This document shows positions 15,152 through 54,617 of a DNA stretch of 64,000 nucleotides, piece after piece. The DNA lies in the NCBI GenBank assembly GCA_958009085.1, contig OY253674.1, forward strand, positions 1 to 64,000, read 5' to 3'. The notes beneath the pieces were generated by a model. It saw only the letters and a list, made by a program, of their open reading frames with translations. It did not search any database and had not been told where the DNA came from. Positions within the stretch are counted from its first letter, which is position 1. The number at the start of each line of letters is the position of its first letter. The DNA comes from Protoeuglena noctilucae (lineage: Eukaryota). The translations under genes were made by a program, and so were the position numbers.

Positions 15152-18100
15152 ATGGTGGGCGCGGCGCCCACGGTGGTGGCCGTCCGAAGCGCGGAGGACT
15201 TCCAGGCGCTGAAGGAATGCCAGGACGCGTCGATCGATTTGCGGCTGTCGGACTATGCCGGGGACGGGGATGAGCTGGCCGCGCAGGCGAGGCATCGCGA
15301 CGCCGTGGCATGCGGGCCCTCCTCCCGCCCGCGACGTGGCACGTTCGGCGTTCCCGGCGTCTCCTCGGGCCCCATAAATTTAGGCATTTGCGACGGAGGT
15401 TTTCTGCTGCCCCCGCAGGTGCGCGAGGGGCTCTCGGGCAAGGCCGGGCTGCGGGCGCTGGTGGTGCGGCCCCCCGCGGACCTCTGGCCCGCGCTGGAGC
15501 CTGTGCTGGCCGAGGCTCTCGTTTCTCTGCAGCTCACGCGATTCGCGCTGCTGCCGGAGCGCGCCGTCCGCGTCCCGGACGCCTCGGGGGAGCTGTTTGC
15601 ATGCCTGCCGCGGCTGGCGGGGTCCCTTGCAGACCTGGAGCTGCACCTGCGCCCGGCGGAGGGGTCCGACCACGACTACGCGTGGTTGGCGTCGCTGACG
15701 CAGCTGGAGCGCCTGGTCCTGGCGCCGGGGCAGCGGGGGCAGTGGGACTACCCGGAGCTGGCGACCCCAGGGCTGGCGGCGGCGCTGGGGGCCCTGCCGC
15801 GGCTGCAGCGAGTGACGCTGTCGTGCTTCTGCCTGCCCGAGGGGTCAGGGGTCGAGGCGGGCGGGGACGCCCCGGACCCAGCGGCGGCGCTGCGGTCGCT
15901 GGCGGGGCTGCCGTCGCTGCGTCGCGTGGAGCTGCGCCTGGGGGTGCTGCGGGGCCAGGTGGACGCGCTCGCGAATCCCGGGGAGCAGGAGGCCGCGGGG
16001 GACGCGGGGGGCCCCCTGGGGGTGCGTCTGCGGGGCGTGGCGGAGGCCGTGGCGGGTGCGGGGCTGGAGGACCTCCGGGTGACGGTGGAGCTGCCATCCA
16101 CGACGCCCTGGGTGGGTGAGGAGGAGGGGGAGGGGGGGGAGGGGAAGGGGGTGGCAGCGGAGGAGGAGGACGGGGGAGCGGGGTGGGGCGAGGGGGAGGG
16201 GGGAGGGGAAGGGGAGGGGGCGGAGGAGGGGTGGGGCGAGGGGGCAGAGGGGGACGGTGAGGGAGAGGGGGAAGAGGGGGAGGGCCAAGAAGGAGAGGAG
16301 GGGGACGGAATGGAAGCGGAAGGAGAGGGAGAGGGGGAAGGGGAGGGTGAGGGGGAGGAGGAGGGCATGGAGATGGGCGCAGAGGAGGGCGAGGGTGCGG
16401 GTGAGGGCGACGTCGAGGAGGCGGTTGCGGGAGAGGAGGGCGAGCAGGTGGAGGGGGTGGCTGCCAATGGCCGCGTGGACCAGCGGCTGGTGCTGACGCT
16501 GGCCGACCAGGGCCTGGCCGAGGCGGGGGTGGCGGAGCTGCGGGAGGAGGGGGCGGTGGCGGCGGTGGACGCAGCCGGCCCCGGGTCCCTGCGGGAGTTC
16601 CTGGACTCGCTGCCGGGCCTGCGCGACTGGCGCGTGTCGGTGGTGGACTGGGGCCGGCGGCAGGCGCTGGTGCGCGCGCGCCGCGGTCGTGAGACGGAGG
16701 CGTACGACGAGGCCGAGGCGTCGGGGCTCGAGGACTGGGACGAGGACTTGATGGAGGAGGACGCGGACGTGGGGATGCCATACGCCGTCACGGAAGAGGG
16801 CGAGGTGGGAGAGCGCAAGAGACACGCACTCGCATTCGCAGGGTCACGCCCTGCCACACCCTCTTGTCACGCTGGGCTCTACTGCCACACCTGCCCCACT
16901 CCCCGCTCTCCCGCAGAAGCGCCCCCTGTCCGGCGCCGTGGCGCTGCTCTCCACCCCGACCGGCTTTGAGCGCCTGGGCGTGGCGGTGCTCTACCAGCGC
17001 GTGCAGGCGGCCTTCCAGGACCAGGACGTCTCCGCGTTCCCCAAGATGGCGTGGGTGGCGCGGTCGCTGCTCCTGGAGGACATCCGGTTCCGCGGGGCCA
17101 CGGGGGACTTTGCGGGGATCAAAGCCGAGGTGGAGGCGTGCCCCATGGAGCGGGTGCTGGTGCGCGCGATCGACGACGACGTCTACGGGGACGCGTCCAA
17201 CGTGGAGATCGCCCTCAGCGAGGAGGTGGCGGCCGCGTGGGAGGCGGTCGAGGCCGAGCGCGACCGGCGCAGGCGCAGGGACGCCCTGCTGGCCACGCTG
17301 CCGGCGAGGGGGGCGCGGGGGCCGTCGCAGAAGCGGAAGCGGAGGAAGCGGAAGAACCGGGCAGACTGGTGAGAGACGGGGATGGGGGGATGGGAGGGGC
17401 GATGAGGATGGGTATCGGTTCAACTGTCGAAGATCCCTGCTGACTCGGGATGGGAGCAGGGGTGTGTGTCGGTTCGACTGTCGTAGATCCCTGCTGACTC
17501 GGGATGGGAGCAGGGGTGTGTGTCGGTTCGACTGTCGGAGATCCCTGCTGACTCGGGACGGGGCGAGGGTGGATGGCCGTGCGACGACCACAGATCCCTG
17601 CCGTGACCGCTGCCCGTGGTGGTGTGACTGCAGGCTCAAGGAGCGGACGGGTCCGTACGAGCCGCGGCCGTGGGAGAGCGCGGGGTCGGAGGCGGCGCTG
17701 GCTGCCATGGCGGTGGTGGAGACGCGGGAGCGACTGTCGCTGCGGGCGGAGAAGCCGCGGAGGCTCTTCGGGAGGCCGCTGGAGCTGGGGTGAGTGAGAG
17801 TCATGCGAGATGCGGTGCAGGGTCAGTCGGCTGGCTGGAGCTGGGTGGGTGTGATTTTCTGCGAGGTGGTGTTTCTGCGTCAGTCGGGCCACACGCGTGA
17901 CTGCCTGGTCTCGCTTGGGCAGGCTGACCGATCGCGACCCATCATGCCCCATCGTGACCCATCGCGTGTGTCCCTCTGCCCCCCAGGTCCAAGGACGCCC
18001 AGGAGCTGTGGAACTCGTCCCACATGGGCATCCCCCACTTCCGCGACGACAACTACAGCCTCGTCAGGCGCGAGATGGACGTGGGCGTTCAGGCGGTGCC

Positions 18101-37681: not shown

Positions 37682-40600
37682 ATGGACCACCCCGCCAGCA
37701 CGAGCCCTGCGGGTGAGCGCGCACGGTGTGCGGGGCGCTGGGAGCGTCTCGGCAGGGCTTGACGACGCGCGCCGAGACAGTCCTGCTTTTTTCATCGGCT
37801 CGTCGATGTGTGGGGTCGCGAGGCTCGGTCTGCGCACGCCGCTGCCCTGGGCATGTTGCGTGCCCATGTTCGCCCGCGCCGCGCGCTGATGGCATCGTTG
37901 ATGGGCTCTTTCGTTTGCAACATGCTCGTTTCCCCCCATTCGCAGCTTCGCGCCCCGTGGCGTCTCTGGAGGTCGTCCCTGAGCATGCGGAGCCGCAGTT
38001 CTCGGCCACGTGGGTCGACAACCCGGGCGCCCTGGCAACGGGGAGATCGGAGCAGGTGCGGGGCGCGCTCCGACGATTCACTACCTTTCGTCGCAAGCGT
38101 TGCGCCACCCGGCGGCTCCCGAGAGGCCTCCGCGTCGCGCTCCCTGCCTGCAGTTCCCTCACCCGCCTCCCTTCGCGGGCCTCCGCGCTCAGTTCGACCC
38201 CGCAACGTATGACTCGGAGCCCGACCTGCATTCGTCGCGCGGCGTGGGCCGCGGGGCGTCCGGGCGGGCCAGGCGGCGCGGCTCCCAGTCCCCGCAGTCG
38301 GACAAGGGTGCCCCGGCCTCCAGGCGAGCGCGGAGCAGCGCGCGCGGCACGGTTGCGATGCGACACGCGCTTGGCGGTATGCCAATCTCCGTTGCTTTGC
38401 TTCTTCTTGCCTTCACAGGCGCAGCATGGACCCCGTTACGCGCCCGCTGACGTCGTCTGCAGTCGAGTCCTCCGCCACCACACCGCCCCCGGAGGGGAGG
38501 CGCAGGCGGAGCACGTGAGATGCACGCTGACGAGTCTCTCTTGGTTGTCTCTCACTCATGCAGCGTCTTGTGTCCATGTGGCACGTAGTGCACCGTAACC
38601 ACGTCCCGTCTGCATGAGCGTGCCACATTGCAGGCACACCACTTCCCACGCCATCCACCCTCCCCCCCCCCCACCATCACTCCCAATGCCACCCCCCCCC
38701 CCTTGCAGTGACCAGCCCCTCCGCATCTCCCAGGGCGAGCACTCGGGCCTCTTCGCCCGCGCGGGCCCCTCCCTGCAGTCCCTGCGACCCCAGCTGCCAT
38801 CCAACACCGATGCGATGGACGACCTGCCGCCCTCCGCATCCGCCGCCGCCTCGCGGGGGGCGTCGGCCAAGAGGGTGAGTGATGTGCATGCATGGGGGGT
38901 GACTGTGACTGTGTCGAGCAAGTAAGCTGGACGCATGGATGTGGGGGGCGTCGGCCAAGATGGTGAGGGACAGAAGCATGCATGTGAAGTGACTGGGACT
39001 GTGGGTGTGCTGAGCAAGTGAGCCATGCGCATGCATGTGGGTTGCCCTGTGTCACTGCCCCATACTCCTCTACTCACCACTTGACACAGCGCACTACCGC
39101 AAAGCATTGTGACGCATAGCACTCACGTAGACCTCTCCCTCTCCCCCCCAGGAGCGCCGCCCCCGCGCGTCTCTGCAGCTGGGCCCCGTATTCGGATCCT
39201 CCGCCCCCCGCCCCGGCCAGTCACGCGCGGTGGTGATGCAAACGCAGAAGGGACCACGCACCACGTCGCGACAGGCGCCCTCCCTCACCTCCACCGCGCC
39301 GGGACTCTCCACCGCCACCAGCAGCGAGTGAGAGACGACGAGTGGGGTGTTATAATATGGGTCGTCTTTTTTGCTGTGGGTATCTGCGATTCACATGCGC
39401 ACCCGCTGTTGTGCAGCAAGCCACAGCCACCCCCTCACGCCTCTCGTTGTCGCCACCCCCTCGCCCCGCCCACTGTCATCCAGCACCCCATGTCACCTCC
39501 TCTCACCCCCTCCCACCCCCTCTTCCCTCCATCCACCCCCCACCCCCACCCTGCCCCCCAGGGCCGCGGCCGACGGCGAGCGCGCGTCCCCCCACCTCTC
39601 GGTGCTGGACCGCTACATGCATCAGCTGCAGATGCGGCAGCCCGTCAAGTGCCGGCTGCTCACCCCCAGCCCCCTCGTGGCCGTCGTGGGCATGCCCATG
39701 GAGCTGCACGTGAGGGTGGTGAACCCCGATCTTGACTTTCTGGTCAGGCCGCCTGAGGTGGACGACTTCGCGCTGTATGTCAGGTCGGGACCCGCCAAGA
39801 GCAAGGACTACCGACTGGTCGTGGAGCAGATCAGCGACAGGGACTTCCGGTGAGGCTGAGGGGGAGATGGGTGGTAGCAGGATCGGTGGGGCTGATGGTG
39901 ACATGACATCGACATCAGCATTGACAAGCATACCCTTTCTCTACTGTTCTCCATCGATGCCTGTCGATTTCAATGAATGCGCAGCGACTGTTTCATTACT
40001 CACTCCCGCCACACACGCACACACACACAACGCAGCCACACACCCATGCTACCCCACCATCACCCCTCCCAACCCACTTCCCCCCCCATCCCGCAGCCTT
40101 GTCTGGGGCACGTCCGTTTCTGGCAAGTACTCGCTGGCCATCACGTGCCAGCACCTGGGGGTGCAGGGCTCCCCCATCGAGGTCGACTGCCAGTACCCGG
40201 TCACCGTGGCGCGTCACTCGTGGATCGCATCCTTTAAAGATCTGAGGGCGGGGGTGGCGTCGTCGTTTCGGGTGGTCGCGTGCGACCAGGCGGGGAACCG
40301 GCGCACGAGGGGGGGGGAGGACTTCGAAGTGCGCGTCAGGTGAGATGGGGGGGGGGGTGAGAAGTTGGGTGTGTTTGGTTGGTTGCGCAGTTGTCAGACT
40401 GTCTTTTAGGTAATAAGAGAGAACCAGTTGCCGATTGTGCATGCCGCACTGTACCCGATCAAGACATACCCCACACCCCAAACACCCCAACCGCCCCACA
40501 CCATGCAACACCACATTACCCCCCAGTCCCCCCCCACATACACCACCCCACACCCCCCACACCCCCGCAAACTCCCCCCAGGGGCCCTGCCGCGTTAGAG

Positions 40601-43600
40601 CGTTGCATATTGGAGGACCTGGAGGACGGCCGCTACAGCAACTTCATGGTGGGGTGCGTGGCGGGATCGTATGAAGTGCACGTCACATTCGAAAATCAGC
40701 CATTGCGCAACAGCCCCGTGCCGTTCCGCATCATGCCCGCCGCTGCGTCCGCGGATCACTCGGCGGTGGCGTGCACGCGGTTCTTCACGCCCAAGCAACT
40801 GGCGGTGCTGGACCAGTGAGTGGGGAAGTGGGTGTGGGGGGAATGTGTGTGTAGTGTTAAGCATGCATGCATGTGTGCATGGGGGTGCTGGACCAGTGAG
40901 TGGGTGGATGGGGGGGGAGGGGGGTGGGGGGATGGGTGTGTGTGTGGGTGGTGGTGTGAATGGAGCAGTGGGGAGGTGGGAGGGGTGCGGGAACGTATGC
41001 ATGTCGTGCAATCACTCCGTGCACTTCTTACTGTTACTGTTTCACTACCTTGACGCGCACATTCACTCACTCGCTCCATTCTCATATCTCTTCCCAATGC
41101 AGGTTCTACACCACTACCTTTGACGTGGACATCTATTCATCGGAGGACGACGACTGCCGCGTGCTGCCCTCCGCCTTCAAGACCAACTTCGTGGACCGGG
41201 GGAGGGCGCTGGTGGGGGACGACGTGCACGTGGTGAGTGATGGGGTGCTGTGTGATGTGCATGCATGGGGTAATTGAGTGAGAGAGTGGGATGGGGTGAG
41301 GAAAGTGTTGCGGTGTGGCAGTGGCAGCGCTGTCGTTCTGTCGTGTCGCATTGCACCCTACCCCACCTCCCCTCACCCACCCTTCACCCCACCCTTCACC
41401 CCTCACCTCCACCCCACCCCCACCCCCCCAAACCCAGGTCCCGGCAAAGCAGAACCGCTCCCACACCAAGAAACTCGCCAAAGTAGCCCCAGTGCATGCG
41501 GAGGGCAGCCAGTGGCCGCGACGGGAGCTGCGACTGAGCGCATTGCTGCGCCCACGCAGCCACCAGCGCATCAGGGAGGGCAGCTTGATCGCAGCCGCGA
41601 GGACTGTGCTGGAGGAGGAGGGGGGGGTGGAGCAGCTGTCTGCGTGGGGCAGGTTGAGGCGACTGCGTGCGTTGGCGGCTGAGGGGGCGGCGGAGGGGAA
41701 AAGGCGAAAGGAAGAGAGGAAAAGGAAAAAAGAGGAGGGGGAGGGGGGGAAAGAGAAAGGGGGAGAGGGGGAGGGAGAGGGGGAGGGGGAGGGGGATGTG
41801 GGGGGTGGGGCGGTGGGGGGGAGGAGGGGGAGGGGGGAGCCGGGGGCGGTGAGGGGGGATGGGGTGGGGTGCATGGGGGTAGTGCGAGTAGTAGCAGCGG
41901 CAGTTTAAGTTGCGAGTGGCGAGTGATAGAGTAGCACCAATGGCAGTGGTGCGGGTTGCCGGCACACGCCTGGCCTTTGCATAGCATGCACGCCACACTC
42001 TCGCCTCTCCCTTCCCATGCTAGCATCACACTCACTTCCTCTCCCACCTCACACTCTCCCCATCCCACGCTACCATCGCCCTTGCCCCCCCCATACCAAC
42101 ACCCCGTCTCACTCTCACCTCACCCTCACCCCCCAACCCCAACCCCCCCCAGGCCCGCCGCCGCCGCCACGAGCAGCTGCGCCGTCAGCGCGAAGAGGAG
42201 GCGCGCAAATTCAGCAAGACAGTGCAGCTGACAGACGCACCCCCCGCGGCCATGGACCCGTGTGAAGTGTGGGGGCAGTGCGGGCGACCATTGACGTGGC
42301 GCGTGACGGGCAGGGACCGGTTTGGCAATGCGCTTGTGCACGGGGGGGACGCGGTGGGGGGGGAGGCGGTGTCGATGGAACGGCTGAGGGGGCTGCATGT
42401 GAGGGAGGCGCTGCATGTGCAGGTGAGAGATGAGAGAGTGGGGTGGTGTCGGTTGATTGTGCGTCTCCGTTGCCGCGCTCTCCACAGCACAGCGCTGTAC
42501 CCGCATGTTACATCACGACCTGTCATCCGCACATCGCTGCTCGCCACGCGCACGTCACTCCCCCCTCCACAGCACAACCACGACGGCACCTGGGACGTCT
42601 CGCTGCCCTGTCACCCCCACAACCACTACACAATCTTGTTATCAATCTTATCAACGACACTTACACATTTCCATCTCTAATAACCACCCCAGGACAACCA
42701 CGACGGCACCTGGGACGTCTCACTCCTCCCCCGCCGCGCCGCCACCTACGACCTCTCCCTGACCATCAACGGCCGCCCCGTGCCCCACCTCGCGTTCAAA
42801 GCACGAGTGGTCGCCGGCCACTCCGATCCCGCCGCCAGCTTCGTGGTGGGGAGGAACACGGTCCCCAGCACGTTCCCGGCCGGATCGCGCATCACGCTGA
42901 TGGTGATAGCAAGGGACAAGTTTCGAAACCCGCGGGAGAGGGGGGGCGAGGACTTTAACGTGAAAGTGGCTTTGATTGGAGAGGATGAGGACCGGAAGCA
43001 GCTGGATAAGCCGATCGATGGTTTTGAGAACGTGACGCGTGCGTTGGCCACGAGGCTCACGGCCGCCACCTTCCAGCACATTCAGGACGCGGCGGCGAGG
43101 CATGGGGGGGGGGAGGAAGGTGAGTGTATTAAGGGGGGGGGGTTGTGGCGGGTGGGGAGTGATGTGGTGGGTGGAAGGAAGGTGAGTGAGGGTGGAGGGG
43201 GATGGGGATCGATGGATGGGTGGGAGTGATGGGTGCGGGAGGGGATGTAGGGGTAATAGATGGGCGCAAATATAGATATACTAAGCACCTATGACAGTGC
43301 TGGCATAGATGCGAGCATAGAAGCGCCACACAGGGTCATGCCTCTCGCCTGCCCGTCAGCCTCACTTACACCCACACCAACCCACTCCCACACCCACCCC
43401 CGCACCCACACTCCCCTCTACCTCCCCAGCCCCCCCCCGCCCCCTCCCGCTCCCGCGTGAGCCTGGTGAAGGGCACAGACGCGACACGATCCCGCGCCAG
43501 TCTCGGCATGCCGGCCACGCGCCCCCTCACGCCCGACTCGGAGCCATCGGGCATGAGTGGGGGGAAGAGCCAGGTGAGTGTGGGTGTGCGAGGGAGATCG

Positions 43601-46600
43601 GTGGGGCGAATGAGCTTGGCAGTGTGCTCCCTCTCTATCACTTCTCACCCTCACTGCCACCCTCACTGCTATCCCCACTGCTACCCCCCCCCCTCACCCG
43701 CGCCCCCCACTCACCCCCCACACCCTCACCCTCATCCCCACCCCACATCTCCCTCCCAGACCTCCCAGCCCCCCCGCCGCCTTCCCAAGCTCCCCGCTGC
43801 TATCGATCAGCGATCCGACTGGTCAAGGCGCATGTTCGGCCGCGACGTCGCTCCCGGTTATGAGCAGTGCGTGGGGTGCGAGATCGAAGTGCCTGAGGGC
43901 AGCAAGGAGGGGGGGGGGGGACGGAGGAGGGGCTGGAGCACCTCAAGGCACAGAAGTTCCAGGTGAGAGAGATGGGGAAGTAATTGTGTTATTATATTCA
44001 TACTATTAAAAAAAAATACCATAGAGATGAGATAATTGCATATGACCATCTGCATGGGAGCACCCCACCCTTACTCTCATCCACATATCCCCATTCTTAT
44101 TTATTCTCATCAATTCTTATGTATCCCCAGGACGCCTTCACGAAAGGCCAGAACCTCCCCGGCGTGTCCACTCTCGTCACTGACCTGGGCAATGGTCTCT
44201 ACCAGGTCATCTTGCGCATCGTGAGGGCGGGGAGCTACGAGGCGAGGGTGTGCCTGGGGGACGCGCTGGTCAAGAACGGGGTGGTGAAATTCGAGGTGAG
44301 GGGAGTGGAGATGGAAGAGATGTGAGATTGACTATAGAGATGACACGGAGGAGACGAGATGGAGCTGATGTGGGGAGCGTGACTGGCTGATAAGGCCATC
44401 ACCACCGCCCACCCACCGCACCACTGCCACCCCTCTCCCCTCTCACACCCCAGCAAGTGCACAGATCATCAACACCACCATACGCTTCCCTCTCCCCTCT
44501 CTCCCAGGTCGTCCCGGGAGAGTGCGAGCCCAGCAAGTGCCATTCATGTAACACCCCCCTCTCTTATTGCTATCTCAGGTCGTCCCCGGCGAATGCGAGC
44601 CCAGCAAGTGCAAGAGCAGCGGGGTGGGCATCCGCCGGGCCGAGGCGGGCTTCAGTTCCGCCTTCTGGGTGTCCGTCCATGACAAGTTCGGCAACCAGCT
44701 GCCGCACAGCGCGCCGGAGGTCAAATGCACGCTGGAGGGGCCCGAGAAGATCGAGGCGGTGGTGATTCCGCATCAAGCGGGGCTCTATCGCGTGTCGTAT
44801 TGGGCGCGGCAGCCGGGGGACTACATGCTGAGAGTGACGTGCAATGGGGTGCTGGTGCTGGGCACTCCGAAGCTGCTGCTGGTGTCTCCCCAGCGCAAGC
44901 GCGTGGCGGCGACGATGGGGGAGGGGTTCCGCACCGCCACGTGCGGGCACCTGGCGACCTTCCGCATGGCGGCGCTGGATGTCACGGGTGAGGTATAACA
45001 AATGGGAGATGTGGATTCAGATGTTGGATGGGATGGTGATATTGGATAAGATGGCAGGTGATTGGAGGTGAGGGGTGGTCACCTGGCGACCTTCCGGATG
45101 GCAGCCTTGGATGTGACGGGTGAGTTAGATGGGGTATGGATTGATATGGATTTGGATATTGGATGTGATGGTGGGTGAGTTGAGGTGAGTGAGGGTCAGT
45201 CAGGGGAACGGCAGCAGCACTCGCTCTCACATTAAAGGACCATGCTTGCTCCCACCCCTCTCCACCATCCATCCATTCCACCCCTTTCACTCAACCCTCT
45301 CACCCCCCCAGGCGCCCGCAAGCAGGTGGGCGGCGACGTCTTCCGCGTGACGCTTCACATGGTGCCGGGCACGAGCGCATCCCTGCGACCGCTGCTGCAC
45401 CGATTGCGCAAATCGAGGCAGGCGGATCACCAAGCCAGGCAGCGATTGGGGGGTGGGGGTGGGAGGGGGGAGGAGGGGGGCAGGGAGGGGGAGGGGGAGG
45501 GGGCGAGGGGGGGGGTGACGGAGAGGGAGGGGATTGCGGGGGTGGTGGATGAGATGAGGGCGAGGAGGGTGAGTGGGGGATGGGGAGTGAGTGAGTGATA
45601 ATGAGTGATAATGAGTGACTGATGATGATGGATGGAGCCGGCATTGCTGCATGCGTGCTTGTGTCTGTCTGCATCAGCCCCGGTCGCCGCCCACTGCCAC
45701 CCACTCTCCGCATCTGCCTGCATGTCACCCTATCCATGATAGTTAAAGTACATCCAATTCATATCACCTCACAATTCCCTCTTGCTATCTCTCTCCCCTC
45801 AGGTCGTGGACGCCTTTCTCATGGCCAAGCAGGAGAGCGACAGCCGGAAGGAGGTGGGGCTCACGGCCTCGGAGAAGGAGCTGACAAAGCAAAAGGAGGA
45901 CTCCAAGGATTCGATCGGAGACCTGCCGGGGGACGGGGACGGGGACGGCGCGGTGCGCGAGAGCGCGGAGGAGGCGCGGCTGAGGGAGGAAGTAGAGGCG
46001 ATGGCGGGGATTGAGGCGGCGGTTTGCGACAACAATGACGGCACCTACACCGTCAGCTACGTGCCTGCCGTGGCCGGGCAGTACCGGGTCAGGGTGGAGG
46101 TGAGGGGGGTAGGGGGGGGTTGATGAGAGTGGCAGCGGGGGTGGAGGTGGATGATGTGGGGTGGGCTCAACACTCGTGCTTTCTCTCACATTCTCATATG
46201 CTGTTGGTGTTGATGCTGTCGATGTCAACTTGCAACACTCTCGTGCCCTCTCTCACATACAACAACACCCCCGCAGATGCTGTTGGTGTTGATGCTGTTG
46301 TTATTGATGGGTGTAACACTCGCACTCTCTCTCACACACACTCTCAGATGCTGCTGGGCCCCGATGCGTTGTTAGATCGCGAGAGAGAGGAGCAGGCGCG
46401 GAGAGTGCGGTGTCTGGAAGAGGGAGCGGCGTCGGTAATGGAGAGCCGGGGGGAGGAGGGGGGGCTGTCGTCACACTCATCGGGGAGCGTGGTGAGGGGG
46501 GGATGGGTGTGGGAGTGTGTGTGTGTGTGCGAGTGGTGATGGGGTGGGCGGAATGCGCTGCATGCTGTCGTGTGCAATCCACATGCACACTCCATGTGTT

Positions 46601-49600
46601 CTTATATGTATACTATGTAATAGTTTACACATATAGTCATATAGTCATCCACATCACCCCTGCCATCCCGCCCTCTCCCATCCCCAGAGCAAGGCGGGCG
46701 CCGGTCTCACCCACAGCCCCTCCGCATTGGGCGGCCAGTTCATCGACGTGACCCCTCTGTATATAAACACGGTCAACGCCCCGGTAGTGAGCTGCACGCA
46801 CGCCGAGCCCCACGGGGCTGCTTGCGTGGTGCTGGGCAACAATGCGCTGTCACGCGAGCTGGACCAGCTCATGCCGGACCCGGAGGCCACGGGGCTGGAG
46901 GTGAGTTGTGTGGGGGTATTTGAATCACATGGGGATGCTTGTATTGTCGTTTGCAGGAAGGGTTATGGAAAGAGATGCTGTGCTGTGCTGTGCTGTGCTG
47001 TGGTTTCCCACCCATGCAACCATCGCCCCTCTCCTCTCTTTCTCTCATTCATACACCCCCCCTCTCCTCTCTCTCTCTCACATCCAACCACCCCCCCTCT
47101 CCCATCTCTTTCACAGTACGAGGAAATCGTCAAGGGCCGCCTGCCCGACTGGGAGACGCTGATGGAAGAATGCGGGTTTGTAGAAGAAAGAGATGCAAAT
47201 GAGGAGAGGGGGAGGGCGGGGCAGGCGGCGAGAAGGGGGCCGCCGGTGCGGAGGAGGGGAAAGGTGAGGGGGGTTTGAATCTGTGAGGGATTTGAATGCT
47301 AGAGAGGGGGGAAGTGAGGGGGATTTGAGTGCTAAAGAGGTGGGGTGGTGGTGGCGGCGGTGGTTGCGACGGTGGTAGTGGTGGTGTGTGCAGAGTCAGA
47401 GCCTGCCGTAAGCGTGCATGCTATCTATCCCCAATCCTTCCATTACTCGCAGTCCCAGAGTTTGGAAGAGGAGGTGCTTTTGGAGGTGGAGGCGGGTGCG
47501 CAGGGCACGCTCACGCTCTTCGTGTGTGATCGGTATTTGAACATGGCGACAACTGGATCCGGGGAGCTGGTGTGCGACACGGCGTTGGTAAAAGATGCGA
47601 ATGGGGAGGCGGGTGTGGTGATGCGTCCCGAGGGGGCCCGGACGCTCGAGGGGCTGCAGGCGGTCATACGGCACAGCCCGCAGGTGAGAAGATAATGATA
47701 GTGGATGGGGTGAGAGTGAATGAGAGATGGGAAAGGGCAAGTCAACCACGGGCCTGGCAGCCATGCTCACAGCATCCCTCACAATCATTCACCCTCACCC
47801 ACCCTTACCCTCATCCATCCTCATTCCCCTCCCATTCAGTGCGACGGCACCTTCACCGTCAAGCTCAATTCAATGCATCCCTCACTCATTCACCCTCACC
47901 CCCTCCCTCTCACCCCTTCACAGGGCGACGGCACCTTCACCGTGAAACTGAAAGCCCACCAGGCGGGCCTCTACCGCCTCCGCACCCGCGTGGCCGGCAG
48001 CTTGTGGCGCAACCTGTCCTGCCGCGTGCGCGTGACGCCCGGTCCCATCGCGCCGTCCATGTGCGCCGTGTACGGGCCGGGGCTCAGGCACGCCTACGCG
48101 GGGGAGTTCGCCAAGTTCACCATCGAGGCCAGGTGAGGGTTTGGTCACAAATTGGAATGGCGGTGCGTGTGGCGATCCTTGTTGCTGACCTATTACATGG
48201 TCGCTTCTATCAGTGTGCTTGTATCCAACACAGCCAGTCGCACTCTATGATGTCTCACCCAATGCCTCCCATCACCTCCTCACCCCCCCCTCCCTTTCCC
48301 CCTTCCAAGGGACACCTACGGCAACCGTCTCTTGAAAGGGGGCGAGTCCTTCAGCGTGACTCTTACCCCCGACATGGACAAGGCAGCCACCAGGGCAGCG
48401 AGGGCGGGGGGTGCGGGATTTGAATAACGGGCTGTATGAGGCCACGTTTCAGTGCACGCGCACGGGGCCTTATGCGATTGCGGTCAGCTACGTGGGGGGG
48501 ACGGCGGGGAAGCCCAGGCTGCAGAGCATCGCGGCGGCGCAGGTGAGGGGGGTGGGGGGGTGGGTGTGGGTGGGATGAGAGGGAGGTGATGGTGGATGGG
48601 TGTGTTGCGACGGTCGCGACTGTCGGCACGCAATGGGCTTATATGCACACCATCCATCACCCACTCATTCCCACTCATTCGCTCCCATTTCTCCATCTTT
48701 CTCAGATCACCGTGGATGCCGGCCGCGCGTCCGGCGCCAGCTGCGTGGCCCGCGGCCCCGGCCTCCTCCGGGCCGGCAGCGGCGTGCCAGCGATCGTGGC
48801 CGTGCTCATTCAGGACGACCTGGGCAATCCCAAGAGCGTGGACGACCCGCACAGGGCCGCCAGCACCGTGCACGGGAGGGGGCTGCACGCCAAGATCGAG
48901 AGGTGGGGGTGGGGGTGGGGGGGATGCGTGTGTGGGGGTGGGATAAGATGGGTAGGGGTGGGATGGGATGCGTGGGGTTGGGGGATGTGGACACTATGTG
49001 GCACTCTGACACTGCTGTATCTCTCTTCGCCCATCCTGTTTCTCCATCCCTCTCACATACACCCACCCTGTCACCCTCCCTGCACCCACCCACTCTGGTC
49101 ACCCATCCACTCTCTCTCACACACACCCTCTCTCTCACTCACACAGTTGCGACGACGACCCCCCCTGCCAGGGCATGTGCACCGTCACCCAGGCGTCATT
49201 GCGCAAGGAGCTGCCCAGCGGGGATGTCCTGGAGAAGTACCTGCCGGGGCTGTACTACGTCATATACAGGCGAGAGTTGATTGTAATTATAATTGTAGTA
49301 ATAGTAACACTAGTGGTCTAGTGGTATATGCGATGTCCTGGAGAAGTACCTGCCGGGGCTGTCATATACAGGCGAGGGATGGGGTGGTGGATATTGAGTA
49401 ACAGTAGTAGTAATGGCAATGGAGTATGCGAGGCCGCAGCTGTCAATCAATAGCAAAGACTGAGCTGCACAAGCACCCAATCACTCACTCACTCCCTCCC
49501 TCACCCCCTCCCTCACTCACGCACTTACCCCCACGCACCCTCAACCCCACACCCCCCTTCCCCATCCCCCCAGGGCCCCCCGCCCCGGCACCTTCTCTCT

Positions 49601-52600
49601 GAGCATCCAATTAGACGAGGAGCACATCAGCGGCAGCCCCTTTCAAACCCCCGTGGCTCGATTAGACGTCGACCAATCGCACGGCGACCTATCGGCGCAA
49701 TTGGGCTTCTCGTCAGAACTGGTGTTTGCGTGGGGGAGGGACACGAGCGGCGCGGTGCTGCGTGATCCGAGAGAAGACCAGGACATATACGGCTTCAGCT
49801 CTCTGATGGCAATGATGGATAGGGAAGCGGTCAAGGCGCAGGTGAGGGGGGGGTGCATGGGTTGGTGATATCAGCATGTGTTAGTATGTGAATTGATGTG
49901 TTGGTATGTGATATTGATCATCCAGCTCTCTCATGGCATTGATGGACAGGGAAGGGGTCAAGGCGCAGGTGAGGGGGGAATGGGATGCGGGATGGGACGC
50001 AATGGCTTGTTAAAACACCGCGGATGCGAGGGAGGCAGTTGATACCCATCCCAATCGTCTTAATTCCTGTCAATCAACCAATCCATCCCGGTATCCCTTA
50101 TGACTGCCATCCGCAGAGGGCCGCAGATGCGAGGGAGGCAGTTGATACCCATCCAACTAATGTCAATCAATGCAAATAGTCAATTATCTATATCTCCCAT
50201 CCTCGTCTCTCTCCGCAGAGGGCCGCGGATGCCAGGGAGGCAGCACGGGCGTCGATGGGGGCCAAGGGGGCAGGGGCATCCAAGGTGCTGATGCTGGGGA
50301 ACTTCCAAATCAAACTGGCAGAGATGGGGAAGGAGGGTGGCGGCGGAGGTGGCAGTGGGGGTGGCAGTGGGGGTGCGGATGCGGGTGCGGGTGCGGGTGT
50401 GGGTGGCAATGCGGGTGGTGGCAGCACAGGTGGCAAGGGTGCAACAGTGGGAAAGCATTTGCAGGCATTGGGCGCCGCGAAGCTGAGCCGGTGGCAGCGC
50501 GCGGGAGAACGTGCTTTGGAGCGCGAGCGTGAGGTGACGCAGGTGCAGATCACGCAAGAGGTGTCGCGCGTGATGCTCAAGCCACGCATGCTGACGAAAC
50601 AAGAGAAGTCGAAACGACTGGATAAGGATCTGGATTACCAGGCGCGGCGTCACGTGGCGGTGGTGGCGATGCACGCGAGCAGAGCGGCGGAGGCGATGGG
50701 GGCGGGGGCGGGGGCGGTGGCGGGGCTGGTGGGGGACAGGGCGAAATACGAGGCGCTGGAGGTGAGGGGGTGTGGGGGTTATATGTGACAGTGATCGTGA
50801 TAACTATATGTGATGGATAGCATTGGTAGTGTTGGTGGGCGACAGGGCGAAATACGAGGCGTTGAAGGTGAGGGGACATGTGAATATGTTTGCGTGGCTG
50901 TGTGGCGACCGCTGGCTCTGCATCAACAGCGCACCGCTGTGCCTGAGCTCAGCAACAGGGCGTCGTGGGCCGTCACAGGCGCACACATGGGTACCTGTCT
51001 TCTCTTTGACCCTCCTTTTCCAAACCAACACAACGGACTGACATCTCACCAAACCATCTTATCAATCCCCATTCCCCCATCCCCCCCGGTCCGCGTTGTC
51101 ACCCTACATTGACTCCTCATCTCAATCCCCCTTATCACCCGCAGTCCGCGTTGTCGTCCCGCCCCGAGCCCCGCGTGGTTCGCGAGGACCCCACCACTGC
51201 GGAATTGCTGCCGTGGAGCGACGCCACGCTGACATTCAAATCCCAAACACAGGGGGTGGGGGTGGGGGCGGCGATGGGGTACACGCGGGCCGCGGGGCTG
51301 CAAGTGCTGGCGGAGGAGAGGACCAGGTGAGGGGTGGGGTGGTGATCAATGTGATTGATGTGATTGGGTGAATGGGTGATATTGTAGATGGTGGTCAGGT
51401 GTTGGTGGAGGGGAGGACCAGGTGAGGGGGGTGGGGTGGTGGTGATCGATTGCAGTGGGGGGTAGATGCTATGGTCAGGTGCTGCTCTCACCCTCACCCT
51501 CACCCCCACTCTCACTCCCACTCTCACCACCACCACCCCTATCACTCTTACTATCACCCCCCCCCCCCCCCCCCCCCCCCCCATCACAACCCCAGGCGCC
51601 ACCTTCGCGAGGAGATGCGTCGCGCGGCGGACCCCACGGCCGCGTCATCTGACGTTTCGGAATCCGAGGGGGCGGAGGCAGAGGCGTCTCTGCTGCCACC
51701 CGCGCTGCGCCACATGTACCGACTAAAGCTGCGGGCGGGGAGGGGGGGCGTGGCGGGGAGGGAGGCGGAGGTGGGGGAAGAGGAGGTGAGGGGGGGGGGG
51801 GGGGGGGGTGGGGGTCTGGTTTGATAACTGTGGCAATTGACGACCTGAGACAACTGCCACAGCTAGCAGCTGTTAATGGCTGTGTGCACATGCTGTGGCA
51901 TGGCGTGTCTGTCATCATGTAGATGTAATCAGAGTGCATTGCATTGTTTCCCATCGCTCTTCGCAAACCGTACGTGCTCGCAGGGCAGCTCTGGCGGGAG
52001 TGGCGAGGGCGCCGCGTTGTTGACGGACAGCGAGGGGAGCCGGGCATCGGATCGTTCATCGCAATCGGAGGCGGGGCAGGGGGGCGCGGGGTCGGATGGG
52101 TCGTCGGGGGATGGGAGCGAGGGGAGCGGGGACGAGGGGGATCCCGACGCCAACCTGCTGCACGGGTGAGTGTTACATGAGTGTTATGTAAGTGTTATAC
52201 GAGTGGGGACAGCTGGGATGGCAGGTTGGTAGGATAGATGCTCACATTCTGCACGGGTGAGGGTGGGAGTGGGTGTACAGGGATGGCGTGATGGCACCCC
52301 CCATGGCTGTGTTGTTGTGATCTTCTTACATACCCCTCAGTCACTAACACCCCGCTGCCCACCCTTCCCCCCCCAGCCTTGGCATCACACACACGTCCCG
52401 CATCGTGCTGGGGAGCGAGGTGGCGCAGAAGCTGATGGGCCGGCTGGGGATGGAGGTGCCGCGATATTATGCAAGGACGCATGCGCCGAGGAGGGTGGGG
52501 GCGGAGGGGGAGCCTCCGAAGAGGACGGGGGGGTGCGACAAGCCGTGGGAAGAGGAGGAGAGGGTGAGGGTATGGAGAGGGGGTGTGGTGAAGAGGGGGT

Positions 52601-53355
52601 GTGAAGTGGGGGGAGGGGTGGTGATGGCATGTCATGGGAAGAGGAGGGGAGGGGAAGGTATGGAGAGGATGGTGGAGTGGAGGGTGTAGAGAGACGAGGC
52701 ATCGCGAAGAGCACGTCATATCTCATCGCTGCGTCATCTCTAGTCTTTCTCTCTCCCCGCAGCCCCTGACGCGCCGCGAGGAGCGGCTGCGGGTGCAGGA
52801 CGCGCTGTGGCGTGGACTGGGGGAGGGGCCGCCCGTCGAGGACGCGGTGCGGCAGGGGTCGACGTTCCTCAAGGTGTGAAACGCGATCACTGGCACGTGA
52901 CTGGAGTGGCCCGAACAGAGTGGTGGGGACAGGCACGTAACACACGATCATGCACATTCTGATTGCAGTGTGACGTGCTCTATCACTCCATCTCTTCCAC
53001 GCGTCTCTTTTCACATATGTCTATCTCCCTTTTCCTATATCCGCAGCAATTGGAGGACCAGATGTCGCAGGAGATATCGCTCGTGCCGCACGCGGGGCGC
53101 GAGGCGGCCAAGGGGGCAGGGCGCTACAGCAGGCCCAGCCGGCCCGGCCACCTGTCCTCCGCGGAGGGTGGCTTCGCGGGAGGGGGTGCCGGGGCGGGGC
53201 CGCGGGGGCCGCAGAGCCCGGGGAGGGGCCCAGCAAGGCTCAACACGCTGAGGCCCAGAGGGGCGGGGGCGGTCGCTGCAGGGCCTCCCTCGCCGGGGAG
53301 GGCCGCGGGGACCGCACCGTGGGGATCCGCGCCCGTGCCGCAGCCGCAGCGGTAG
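37682..53355 (+). CDS. Large filamin/ABP280-repeat protein (>25 exons)
   Basis: Repeated filamin Ig motifs: FRVVACDQAGNRRTRGGEDFEV, DLEDGRY..GSYEVHV..NSP, DNHDGTWDV, ARDKFRN..GGEDFNV, DLGNGLYQV, HDKFGN, DNNDGTYTVSYVP, DTYGNRLLKGGESF, EHISGSPF. Low-complexity termini; start and end exons tentative. Confidence 0.82.
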
Positions 53356-53543: not shown

Positions 53544-54617
53544 ATGGCCAGGGCCCGTCCTTGCGCGTGCTCTCTGCCTCCGAGATCGCGGACCCTGCTT
53601 CGCGCGCATCTCTCGCAGACCGTGTTCGGACCGGCGCCGAGTTGCTGCCCTGCCGCGTCGCACGTCCGCTTTGCCAAGCAACGTGTACGCGCCCAGCGTT
53701 CCGACGATGCCCGCGCGGTCCCGATGCCGGAGGGAAAGGAGGGGGTGGAGTACAAGGACTCCTTGACGGATATCGCCTTCATCGCGCTGTGCAGGTGGCT
53801 GCGCGAAGGGCTGGATGTTGGCCCACGTGAGCCAAGCACTGGCGAGGATGTTACTTAGCGCTCCCGGCTCGCAGGGTCGCGTACGGGAACATTGCTGGCT
53901 TCCAGAGCAAGCAGAGCTGGGTCGACGGCCCTTCCACGTTCCGCGGGATGGTGGAAGTGTCTGCTGCGGTCATGCGGGGGCGGTCAGGGGGCGAGGTGGC
54001 CGAGCGAGTCATCTCTGGGTGCGTCACGTTTGGCATCCACGCCATGTGACACTCTCCCATCCCATCCTAACTCCACTGACTCGCCACTCTTACTGCACGT
54101 GTCATCTCTGGGTGAGACATGTTGTGGCATCATCGCCATGTGACACGCGCCCGCAAGACCACCGACTCGCCACTCTTGCTGCAGGTTCCCCCAGGTGCCG
54201 CCGTGGTTCCGCAAAGTCTTCCCCTACTCCAAGTGGGGCGCGGAGCTCAACGCGCGCATCACGCCCGCGTTCTTCCAGTGGCTCGTGGGCCCTTGCGAGC
54301 CGGTGGACATCGAGGTCCCAGGGGCGGGCACCCAGCGCAGCGGCGTCAAGATCCAACGATGCCGGTACCTTGCCGAGAGCGGGTGCAAGGCCATGTGCGT
54401 CAACCTGTGCAAGCAGCCCACGCAGACCTTCTTCACCGAGCAGCTCGGCATGCCGCTGACCATGGAGCCCGACTTTGAGACATTGGAGTGCACGATGAAG
54501 TTTGGCGTGCACCCCAGCCCAATAGCTGATGACCCCGTCATGCAGCAGCCATGCTGGTCGACGTGCGCGGTCGTCGGCGCGCCCGCCGGGCCGTGCCCGT
54601 CCATCGCGGATCATTAG
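53544..54617 (+). CDS. Beta-carotene isomerase D27-like protein
   Basis: Transit-like N-terminus; YKDSLTD; FFQWLVGPCE; VKIQRCRYLAESGCKAMCVNLCKQPTQTFF..LGMPLTMEPDFETLECTMKFG. Confidence 0.92.

Follow-up and report, generated by a model that had tools for sequence, protein, structure and literature searches.

We analysed the first 64,000 nucleotides of contig OY253674.1 in the Protoeuglena noctilucae assembly GCA_958009085.1 (forward strand; hereafter the window). Our subject is a gene with filamin/ABP280 repeats in which many introns contain a second copy of the adjacent exon end together with its splice site. We refer to these copies, which are 12–55 bp long, as echoes. The window has a G+C content of 60–74%, starts with CCCTAA (TTAGGG-type) telomere repeats at positions 1–235, and carries ordinary eukaryotic genes with GT-AG introns, including those for eRF1 and a pyridine-nucleotide disulphide oxidoreductase. 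The coordinates of the filamin gene and of all echoes are given in Table 1.

The gene model was built by splice-aware dynamic programming and corrected by hand at the exon ends 49269 and 50761, the latter being substituted for the model's own choice. Introns of the gene are 43–383 nt long overall, mostly 160–380 nt, and start with GTGAG and end with CAG. The intron at 49270–49573 is apparently of the GC-AG type (CAG/GCGAG). With this reading no additional residues come between the two halves of a filamin repeat, and the GC-type donor that follows exon end 49269 is itself copied in the echo. The exon at 44579–44986 matched the Pfam family PF00630 (Filamin) with E=4e-15 and 56.9 bits against a cut-off of 26.9, and partial matches were found on four further exons of the nine tested, two at or above the cut-off and two below it. 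A near-length protein search, which also returned the window's own product, identified two relatives in public transcriptome or metagenome data, as protein sequences only (P0002 and P0003, 68% and 75% identical). Since P0003 reads continuously through the junction between exons 13 and 14 (exon end 44295, next start 44579), this junction is supported by the related protein. No relative was found in a search for longer proteins, none was present among 302 pattern matches in a scan of JGI metagenomes, and an Rfam search gave no match in the filamin gene.

To locate echoes, we searched the adjoining intron with the terminal 60 nt at either end of each exon, extended by 8 nt of intron, and recorded the best ungapped match (+1/−1.5), using the other 30 introns of the gene as controls. 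Scores above all 30 controls were obtained on 15 of the 62 junction sides, affecting 13 of the 31 introns, where about two would be expected by chance. Eleven of these echoes scored 21.5–44, while the highest control score among them was 13; the remaining four (46192, 51083, 52249 and 52635) are short and weaker. Nine of the 15 are at donors and six at acceptors. All are direct copies, and all are located in the adjacent intron, 55–132 bp from the true junction. The original prediction had described echoes of this kind in the gene, and every one that it listed was recovered in place or within a few bases. An annotation-free self-comparison also returned the echo pairs, concentrated at 38.8–54.2 kb.

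Table 1. Positions and properties of the filamin gene and of the echoes in its introns (window coordinates; control maximum, highest score in the 30 control introns; z, against shuffled sequences)
Feature	Positions	Strand	Spacing (bp)	Score (control maximum)	Synonymous, non-synonymous differences	Identity of intron parts (z)	Remarks
Filamin/ABP280-repeat gene	38709–52873	+					~32 exons, 31 introns; rough model, ends uncertain
Echo of exon end 38855–38874 and 5' splice site	38943–38970	+	88	23 (10.5)		76% (11.6)
Echo of exon end 40800–40815 and 5' splice site	40880–40903	+	80	21.5 (9.5)	0, 1
Echo of 3' splice site and exon start 42693–42724	42567–42604	+	120	30.5 (11)	1, 1 (score-set ends)		Non-synonymous difference at first exon base
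Echo of 3' splice site and exon start 44579–44611	44502–44540	+	71	29 (9)	3, 0		Additional partial copy near 44449–44462
Echo of exon end 44945–44987 and 5' splice site	45077–45127	+	132	33.5 (11)	6, 0	82% in aligned columns, many gaps (6.1)	Families D18, D20
Two copies (starts ~46198, ~46277) of 3' splice site and first 10 nt of exon 46348	46192–46286	+	Unit ~71–79	11 (9.5)		76% (9.4)	Weak
Echo of 3' splice site and exon start 47924–47952	47837–47868	+	84	22 (11)	3, 1	84% (5.5)	Non-synonymous difference at first exon base
Echo of exon end 49223–49269 and GC-type 5' splice site	49332–49376	+	109		0, 0	67%	Youngest; one 7-nt deletion
Echo of exon end 49796–49841 and 5' splice site	49923–49976	+	127	44 (12.5)	2, 2
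Two copies (50014–50038, 50110–50141) of 3' splice site and exon start 50219–50243	50014–50141	+	Unit 102–103	27 (11)	2, 0 (nearer copy)	79% (6.3)	Family D14
Echo of exon end 50718–50761 and 5' splice site	50824–50875	+	106	35.5 (13)	4, 3 (loose ends); 2, 1 (strict ends)		Family D7
Short echo of 3' splice site region and exon start 51145–51155	51083–51100	+	55	13 (10.5)			Weak; AG lost
Echo of exon end 51301–51326 and 5' splice site	51396–51429	+	95	24 (11)	2, 2	77% (9.1)
Short echo of exon end 52158–52165 and 5' splice site	52249–52264	+	91	13.5 (12)			Weak
Short echo of exon end 52546–52563	52635–52653	+	89	16.5 (10.5)			GT lost; family D5

The same scan of 36 roughly modelled introns in nine other gene models of the window gave hits on 2 of 72 sides, both with scores of at most 12. 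Reverse-complement echoes were at chance level (1 of 62), and snap-back templated insertion, which would leave inverted copies, was discarded. Copies on the far side of the exon were likewise at chance level (1 of 30). A search for older echoes kept only at the protein level added nothing to the DNA-level set, save two or three marginal low-complexity matches.

The scarcity of far-side copies bears on the idea that the echoes are by-products of intron gain, arising either as target-site duplications of introner transposons or through tandem duplication of an exon segment containing AGGT. The latter, the topic of PMC3265369 and PMC4974935, reportedly creates an intron where there was none before, the new intron consisting of far-side exon sequence. 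As in that model, a local tandem duplication has placed two equivalent splice signals in series in the filamin gene, with a coding copy inside the intron, but here an existing junction was copied, the match is to the near side, and the far-side copies that the model predicts are absent above chance. As for introners, P. noctilucae resembles their hosts in being a marine protist with a GC-rich genome and introns near 200 bp, and an exon duplicate at an introner's border can supply a splice site (PMC9860276). Moreover, the intron lengths lie close to 210 bp, where, according to the Pelagomonas genome paper, introner elements in A. anophagefferens have their characteristic peak (PMC9481584), and the related proteins seem to have introns elsewhere. 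However, an all-against-all blastn of the 31 introns yielded only seven short low-complexity matches, so that the introns share no family similarity, and the target-site duplications given in the introner source are 3–9 bp long (PMC9860276), whereas the echoes measure 12–55 bp and lie 55–132 bp deep in the intron. We therefore consider an origin in intron gain very unlikely.

In seven of 12 units the adjoining piece of intron had been duplicated together with the exon end (67–84% identity with many gaps; z 5.5–11.6 against shuffled sequences), and in the other five the exon parts were well preserved and the intron parts could not be aligned. Three-copy arrays were found at 44449/44508/44579, 46198/46277/46348 and 50014/50117/50219. 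At 38943 the entire 88-nt unit is duplicated, and this array (38855–39041; period 88, 2.0 copies, 77% matches) is the only one among the echo units reported by TRF. At 45077 the intron piece next to the exon copy has been duplicated as well, and the second unit continues at 45184–45200 into a few bases similar to those with which the unit begins, a pattern expected of exchange between short repeats. Because the intron piece was duplicated along and three-copy arrays occur, the echoes are direct local tandem duplications, which could also be described as minisatellites with very short arrays; their unit of ~55–132 bp straddles the splice junction. The duplication process is ongoing; the divergence of echoes from their exons ranges from 0/40 (49332) to 6/43 (45077), that is, up to ~14%.

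The introns of the filamin gene as a whole are longer than those of neighbouring genes (median 242 vs 132 nt), rich in repeats with a period of 6–36, and strongly skewed in G/C, from +0.45 in the G/T-rich 5' half to −0.45 in the C-rich 3' half. Echo-bearing introns are longer still, with a mean of 282 nt vs 225 nt for the other introns of the gene (one-sided Mann-Whitney P=0.003). Two further tandem repeats were noted in the window. One is an intronic duplication of ~93 bp, 75% identical, at 54005–54186, just 3' of the modelled gene end; a duplication-prone zone, or the gene itself, may extend to ~54.5 kb. The other is a 54-bp repeat (~3.6 copies, 79–86% identical) at 17406–17601 in the intron of another gene, which stops short of the exon.

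In each pair, the outer copy is continuous with the reading frame of the exon, and we infer on this ground that it must be the one that is spliced, with the inner copy sitting in the intron. The same argument reverses the roles assigned to one pair in the original prediction: since the copy at 49796 carries on the reading frame of the exon, it represents the live end, and 49923–49968 is the echo. Judged by their sequence, the echoes themselves cannot code. Reading on past 44987 meets a stop codon in the intron after three codons, echoes of 43 and 46 nt would break the frame, and the echo at 49332 carries a 7-nt deletion. Each echo has one splice site only, and no splice sites were found by which an echo could take the place of the exon end. 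Tandem alternative or mutually exclusive exons were ruled out for the same lack of a second splice site and of a maintained reading frame. The suggestion that the echoes might be used as coding sequence in some transcripts was thus not upheld. Translation in alternative transcripts would explain differences that are silent only, yet with these stops, frame-breaking lengths and missing flanking splice sites we give it very little credence, and we give no more to the other way in which such pairs are known to arise, namely the merging of haplotypes in assembly.

This second possibility was examined in independent sequencing runs. A run search found the stretch in organism-labelled runs and in marine metagenomes (0.95 and 0.84 of sampled words). 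We compared positions 38500–53000, at a likeness of at least 90% and among the contigs displayed, with an organism-labelled DNA run that is possibly the source sample (X3), two marine metagenomes of another study (X5 and X6) and a metatranscriptome (X9). Short-read contigs of X5 bridged 12 of the 15 pairs of echo and exon with 0 differences (for example 43909–45436, 42143–43113, 47011–48548, 49333–50384 and 50369–51477), and those of X6 bridged most of the same pairs. Thus, the echo at 44502 showed 0 differences in both the X5 contig 43909–45436 and the X6 contig 43909–45405, the echo at 42567 was also bridged in both runs, and the echo at 49923 was covered by the X5 contig 49333–50384. For the pairs at 38943, 40880 and 49332, a bridging DNA contig was displayed for X3 alone, which for 49332 is a contig of 138 nt; at the first of these an RNA contig also spans 38831–39011. 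Haplotype merging, which the original prediction had named as a result that would overturn it, is excluded by the exact, letter-for-letter agreement of contigs from two independent metagenomes assembled by a different method.

The same runs gave limited views of copy number and expression. No copy-number variation of the variable-number tandem repeat kind was seen in X3, X5 or X6 where displayed contigs bridge the units, which is a weak test in populations that look near-clonal. In X9, contigs ran unspliced across junctions and echoes at 38831–39011, 42596–42755, 47813–48043 and 50822–51049, at a depth of 3–8 at which carry-over of DNA is possible. No splice joint of the filamin gene was present among the 15 joints listed of 81, a result subject to the same shallow depth and possible carry-over. 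Contig depth in X3 was uneven (44 up to 41.7 kb, 13–22 over 41.9–51.5 kb and 133 from 51.8 kb), and in X5 and X6 it was flat (8–13 and 6–10). Possible causes of the unevenness are a bias of the library and, in that culture, a different copy number close to the chromosome end. Contigs of every run break at G-rich or poly-C tracts in or beside predicted exons (41730–41870, 45448–45532 and 51557–51582).

Splice motifs are largely retained in the echoes: GTGAG or GCGAG is intact in eight of nine donor echoes, and AG in five of the six nearest acceptor echoes, with AG lost in the farther upstream copies at 46198 and 50014. The acceptor echoes paired with 42693 and 47924 differ from the real site precisely at the first exon base. 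These features would suit a function in splicing, in which the echoes, as decoys or auxiliary sites, recruit U1 or U2AF near the true site or divert a share of transcripts to stop-containing mRNAs. Silent yet functional pseudo 5' splice sites have been documented in the human F7 gene (PMC1557585), and an exon can reportedly be regulated by U1 bound downstream of a 5' splice site (PMC5933811). Nevertheless, splicing signals would not yield conservation with codon periodicity, motifs of this length could remain intact by chance given the divergence seen, and the phenomenon is restricted to one gene. A splicing role is therefore improbable in our estimate.

The F7 case is also the closest structural precedent. 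In intron 7 of human F7 (IVS7), a 37-bp minisatellite has its first unit across the exon 7/intron 7 boundary and creates silent but functional pseudo 5' splice sites, of which the upstream-most site is chosen (PMC1557585). Like the echoes, its units are direct tandem copies that start in the exon end, so that an authentic donor is followed by look-alike pseudo-sites in the intron. The filamin gene differs in having 13 affected introns rather than one, and acceptors (six sides) besides donors (nine). Its units of 55–132 bp are mostly present in two copies and are much more diverged, with differences biased towards silent ones. Furthermore, in F7 the use of the upstream-most site is known from the mRNA, whereas in the filamin gene the use of the outer site follows from the reading frame only. 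The view that no comparable system has been described was thus too strong as regards structure. The structure itself is of a known type; what is unusual is its density in one gene, the involvement of acceptors besides donors, and the silent-biased divergence. Literature text searches found no description of silent-biased exon copies in introns, F7 being the sole case that they returned.

We then turned to the differences between echoes and exons. For its best case, the original prediction had reported six differences, all synonymous, between 44945–44987 and 45077–45119, and this was confirmed (6 differences in 43 nt, 6/6 synonymous). Its counts for the seven long pairs were likewise reproduced, as were three non-synonymous differences within 3 nt of a junction (42693, 47924 and 50759). 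Its overall tally of 21 synonymous to 5 non-synonymous differences did not hold, because short echoes with only non-synonymous differences (38873, 40803, 51311 and 51317) had been omitted. With alignment ends set by score, the 13 segments, covering 114 codons, showed 24 synonymous differences and 11 non-synonymous ones; with stricter ends and three extra short echoes, the tally was 22 to 10 in 16 segments.

The yardstick applied to that tally, according to which a quarter to a third of random changes are synonymous, was also unsuitable. In a pair consisting of a dead duplicate and a live exon, the exon changes only silently; if a fraction f of random changes is silent, silent differences should make up 2f/(1+f) of the total. 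This null gave 0.38–0.49 depending on the mutation model, and forward simulation gave a mean of 0.41. Much of the synonymous bias therefore arises because the live copy can change only silently. Even so, binomial tests on both tallies indicated a silent excess (P=0.0005–0.016). When the test was conditioned on substitution class, 12.6 synonymous differences were expected vs 22 observed (P=0.0002), and forward simulation with the detection step included gave P ~0.0013. These results support the conclusion that echo–exon differences are more often synonymous than neutral decay predicts, with P values from 0.0002 to 0.016 in tests made post hoc. The silent bias beyond dead-duplicate decay therefore persists against the corrected null; it is weaker than had been claimed, yet it is not explained away.

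The differences also have a coding-type character. C-to-G and G-to-C changes accounted for 12 of the 32 found in the exon-derived parts vs 7 of 97 in the co-duplicated intron parts. Leu CTG codons differed silently at 7 of 11 occurrences outside the young 49332 echo (7 of 14 overall). A hypermutable CTG, which might lie behind the five CTG-to-TTG changes, was unsupported by the intron parts, where C in a CTG context differed as T in 1 of 11 cases, and just one out-of-frame CTG was available for comparison. Compositional pressure in the two intron halves fails to explain the codon pattern. Donor-side echoes had lost ~9–11 C and gained 4, and acceptor-side echoes had lost 5 G and gained 5, with no net loss. 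The co-duplicated intron parts could not be used as a neutral clock, being low in complexity, rich in insertions and deletions (indels), and possibly remodelled beside the live site.

These numbers can be set against plain decay, in which tandem units identical at birth, produced by replication slippage or sister-chromatid exchange, decay beside a constrained exon, and the silent surplus is a small-sample, post hoc fluctuation. Several observations speak for it. In the best case the divergence is as predicted, with 6/43 in the exon part vs ~18% mismatch in the aligned intron part; changes from G or C in the exon to A or T in the echo are divided 8 synonymous to 4 non-synonymous, just mildly off expectation; the short echoes of 38873 and 40803 carry non-synonymous differences only; and intact pseudo splice sites are, in our reading, about as frequent as neutral decay allows. 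Altogether there are no more than 32–35 differences, and the hypothesis was drawn from the same data. On the other hand, the excess had P values of 0.0002–0.016 across all mutation models tried, third-position exchanges between C and G are far commoner than in the intron parts, and the echo at 49332, identical at 40 of 40 aligned bases beside an intron part of 67% identity, does not look like simple co-decay. Plain decay comes close in likelihood to the explanation that we place first below, and we would not be surprised to see it borne out, although on balance we do not expect it.

The contrast within the 49332 unit, together with the five units whose exon parts are well kept beside unalignable intron parts, might instead point to recurrent overwriting of the echoes by short gene conversion or templated patches from the adjacent exon end, which would keep the exon part young. 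Conversion, however, should erase silent and replacement differences alike, and so would not raise the synonymous share. The related idea that echoes are selected through conversion back into the exon was rejected by reasoning alone; it needs a rate of conversion that would also homogenise silent sites. The fast change of the intron parts may instead reflect slippage, or remodelling into a polypyrimidine tract beside the live site. Recurrent overwriting thus appears to be a poor candidate, with little chance of being correct.

The explanation that we tentatively place first, while still short of regarding it as probable, is that the echoes are inert remnants left when intron ends of low complexity recombined out of register, and that a diverged homologous copy gave rise to some of them or patched them. 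Out-of-register recombination or repair between short-period tracts, G-rich in the 5' half of an intron or C-rich in the 3' half, would make the duplications. A duplication within an exon would be removed by selection, and one that crosses a junction would be tolerated, because one complete exon end and its splice site remain. With less confidence, we suggest that the residual excess (22 synonymous differences against ~13 expected) could stem from units that derive from, or were later patched by, a diverged homologous template. This template might be an allele in an unequal inter-allelic exchange, of the kind typical for minisatellites, or a paralogue at another chromosome end. The two copies would then have differed already, mostly silently, on becoming neighbours, and selection on the protein would have acted on both through most of their divergence. 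Capture from a diverged allele or homeolog, as the original prediction had proposed, would fit the numbers.

There is some background for such exchanges. Exchange between chromosome ends is common, and the filamin gene lies 39–53 kb from the telomere. Germ-line instability of human minisatellites involves inter-allelic, conversion-like transfer of blocks of repeats. A transfer of that type would place units from two alleles side by side, as a diverged template requires; the allelic divergence needed here is far higher than in human, and no second allele was seen at a likeness of at least 90%.

Several observations weigh against this explanation. The excess was tested post hoc on the data that had prompted the idea, 32–35 differences in all, and the five CTG-to-TTG changes, which exceed the prediction of every model considered, warn of oddities that come with small numbers. 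Silent divergence at birth would have to be large, ~0.05–0.3 per silent site by our estimate, whereas no second haplotype was found over 14.5 kb in the three DNA runs at the likeness threshold; the single variant row listed concerns one base at 50771, and the sampled wild populations look near-clonal at the filamin gene. No diverged paralogue was seen in the runs either, at a threshold that a template of less than 90% likeness would escape. The uneven divergence among echoes does not fit a single source and date. In addition, the sequence offers no reason why the filamin gene alone in the window is affected.

A more specific version holds that the echoes are scars of repeated imprecise break repair in fragile G- or C-rich introns, templated by a strongly diverged homologous copy such as an ancient allele class, a homeolog or a subtelomeric paralogue. 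We regard this version as doubtful. If it were true, each pseudo-junction would preserve, as a fossil, the exon end of the other copy, and the gene would be a concealed mosaic. The echoes would then amount to a hitherto undescribed trace of homeologous template switching, one that a single genome reveals through coding-type divergence in the introns of a subtelomeric gene.

Some further features of the gene and its surroundings were recorded. Beside their filamin matches, three exons in 40098–43070 showed sub-threshold similarity (E 0.004–0.02) to GEX2, a plant gamete-attachment protein, in its N-terminal Ig-like domain, and this weak likeness may serve as a lead to function only. When compared with 44131–44987, P0002 and P0003 seem to run into intron-like sequence where the filamin gene has no intron, and one of the two is without intron 44296–44578; intron positions in this family may be changeable. 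At the chromosome end, tRNA genes for Thr-CGT, Met-CAT and Ser-GCT are located at 454–828, less than 830 bp from the terminus.

What the echoes mean depends on the silent excess. If the excess is due to chance, they are an ordinary but unusually dense cluster of small tandem duplications. On this plain reading, too, the gene is a natural experiment in splice-site choice, with about a dozen introns that offer two nearly equal donors or acceptors 55–132 bp apart, and it illustrates one route of intron lengthening, the echo-bearing introns being ~60 nt longer. Should the silent excess be borne out in the whole genome or in other strains, junction echoes would represent a novel type of internal fossil that preserves the homologous exon copy present at the time of recombination or repair. 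Past exchange with diverged alleles or paralogues would then be detectable from one assembly.

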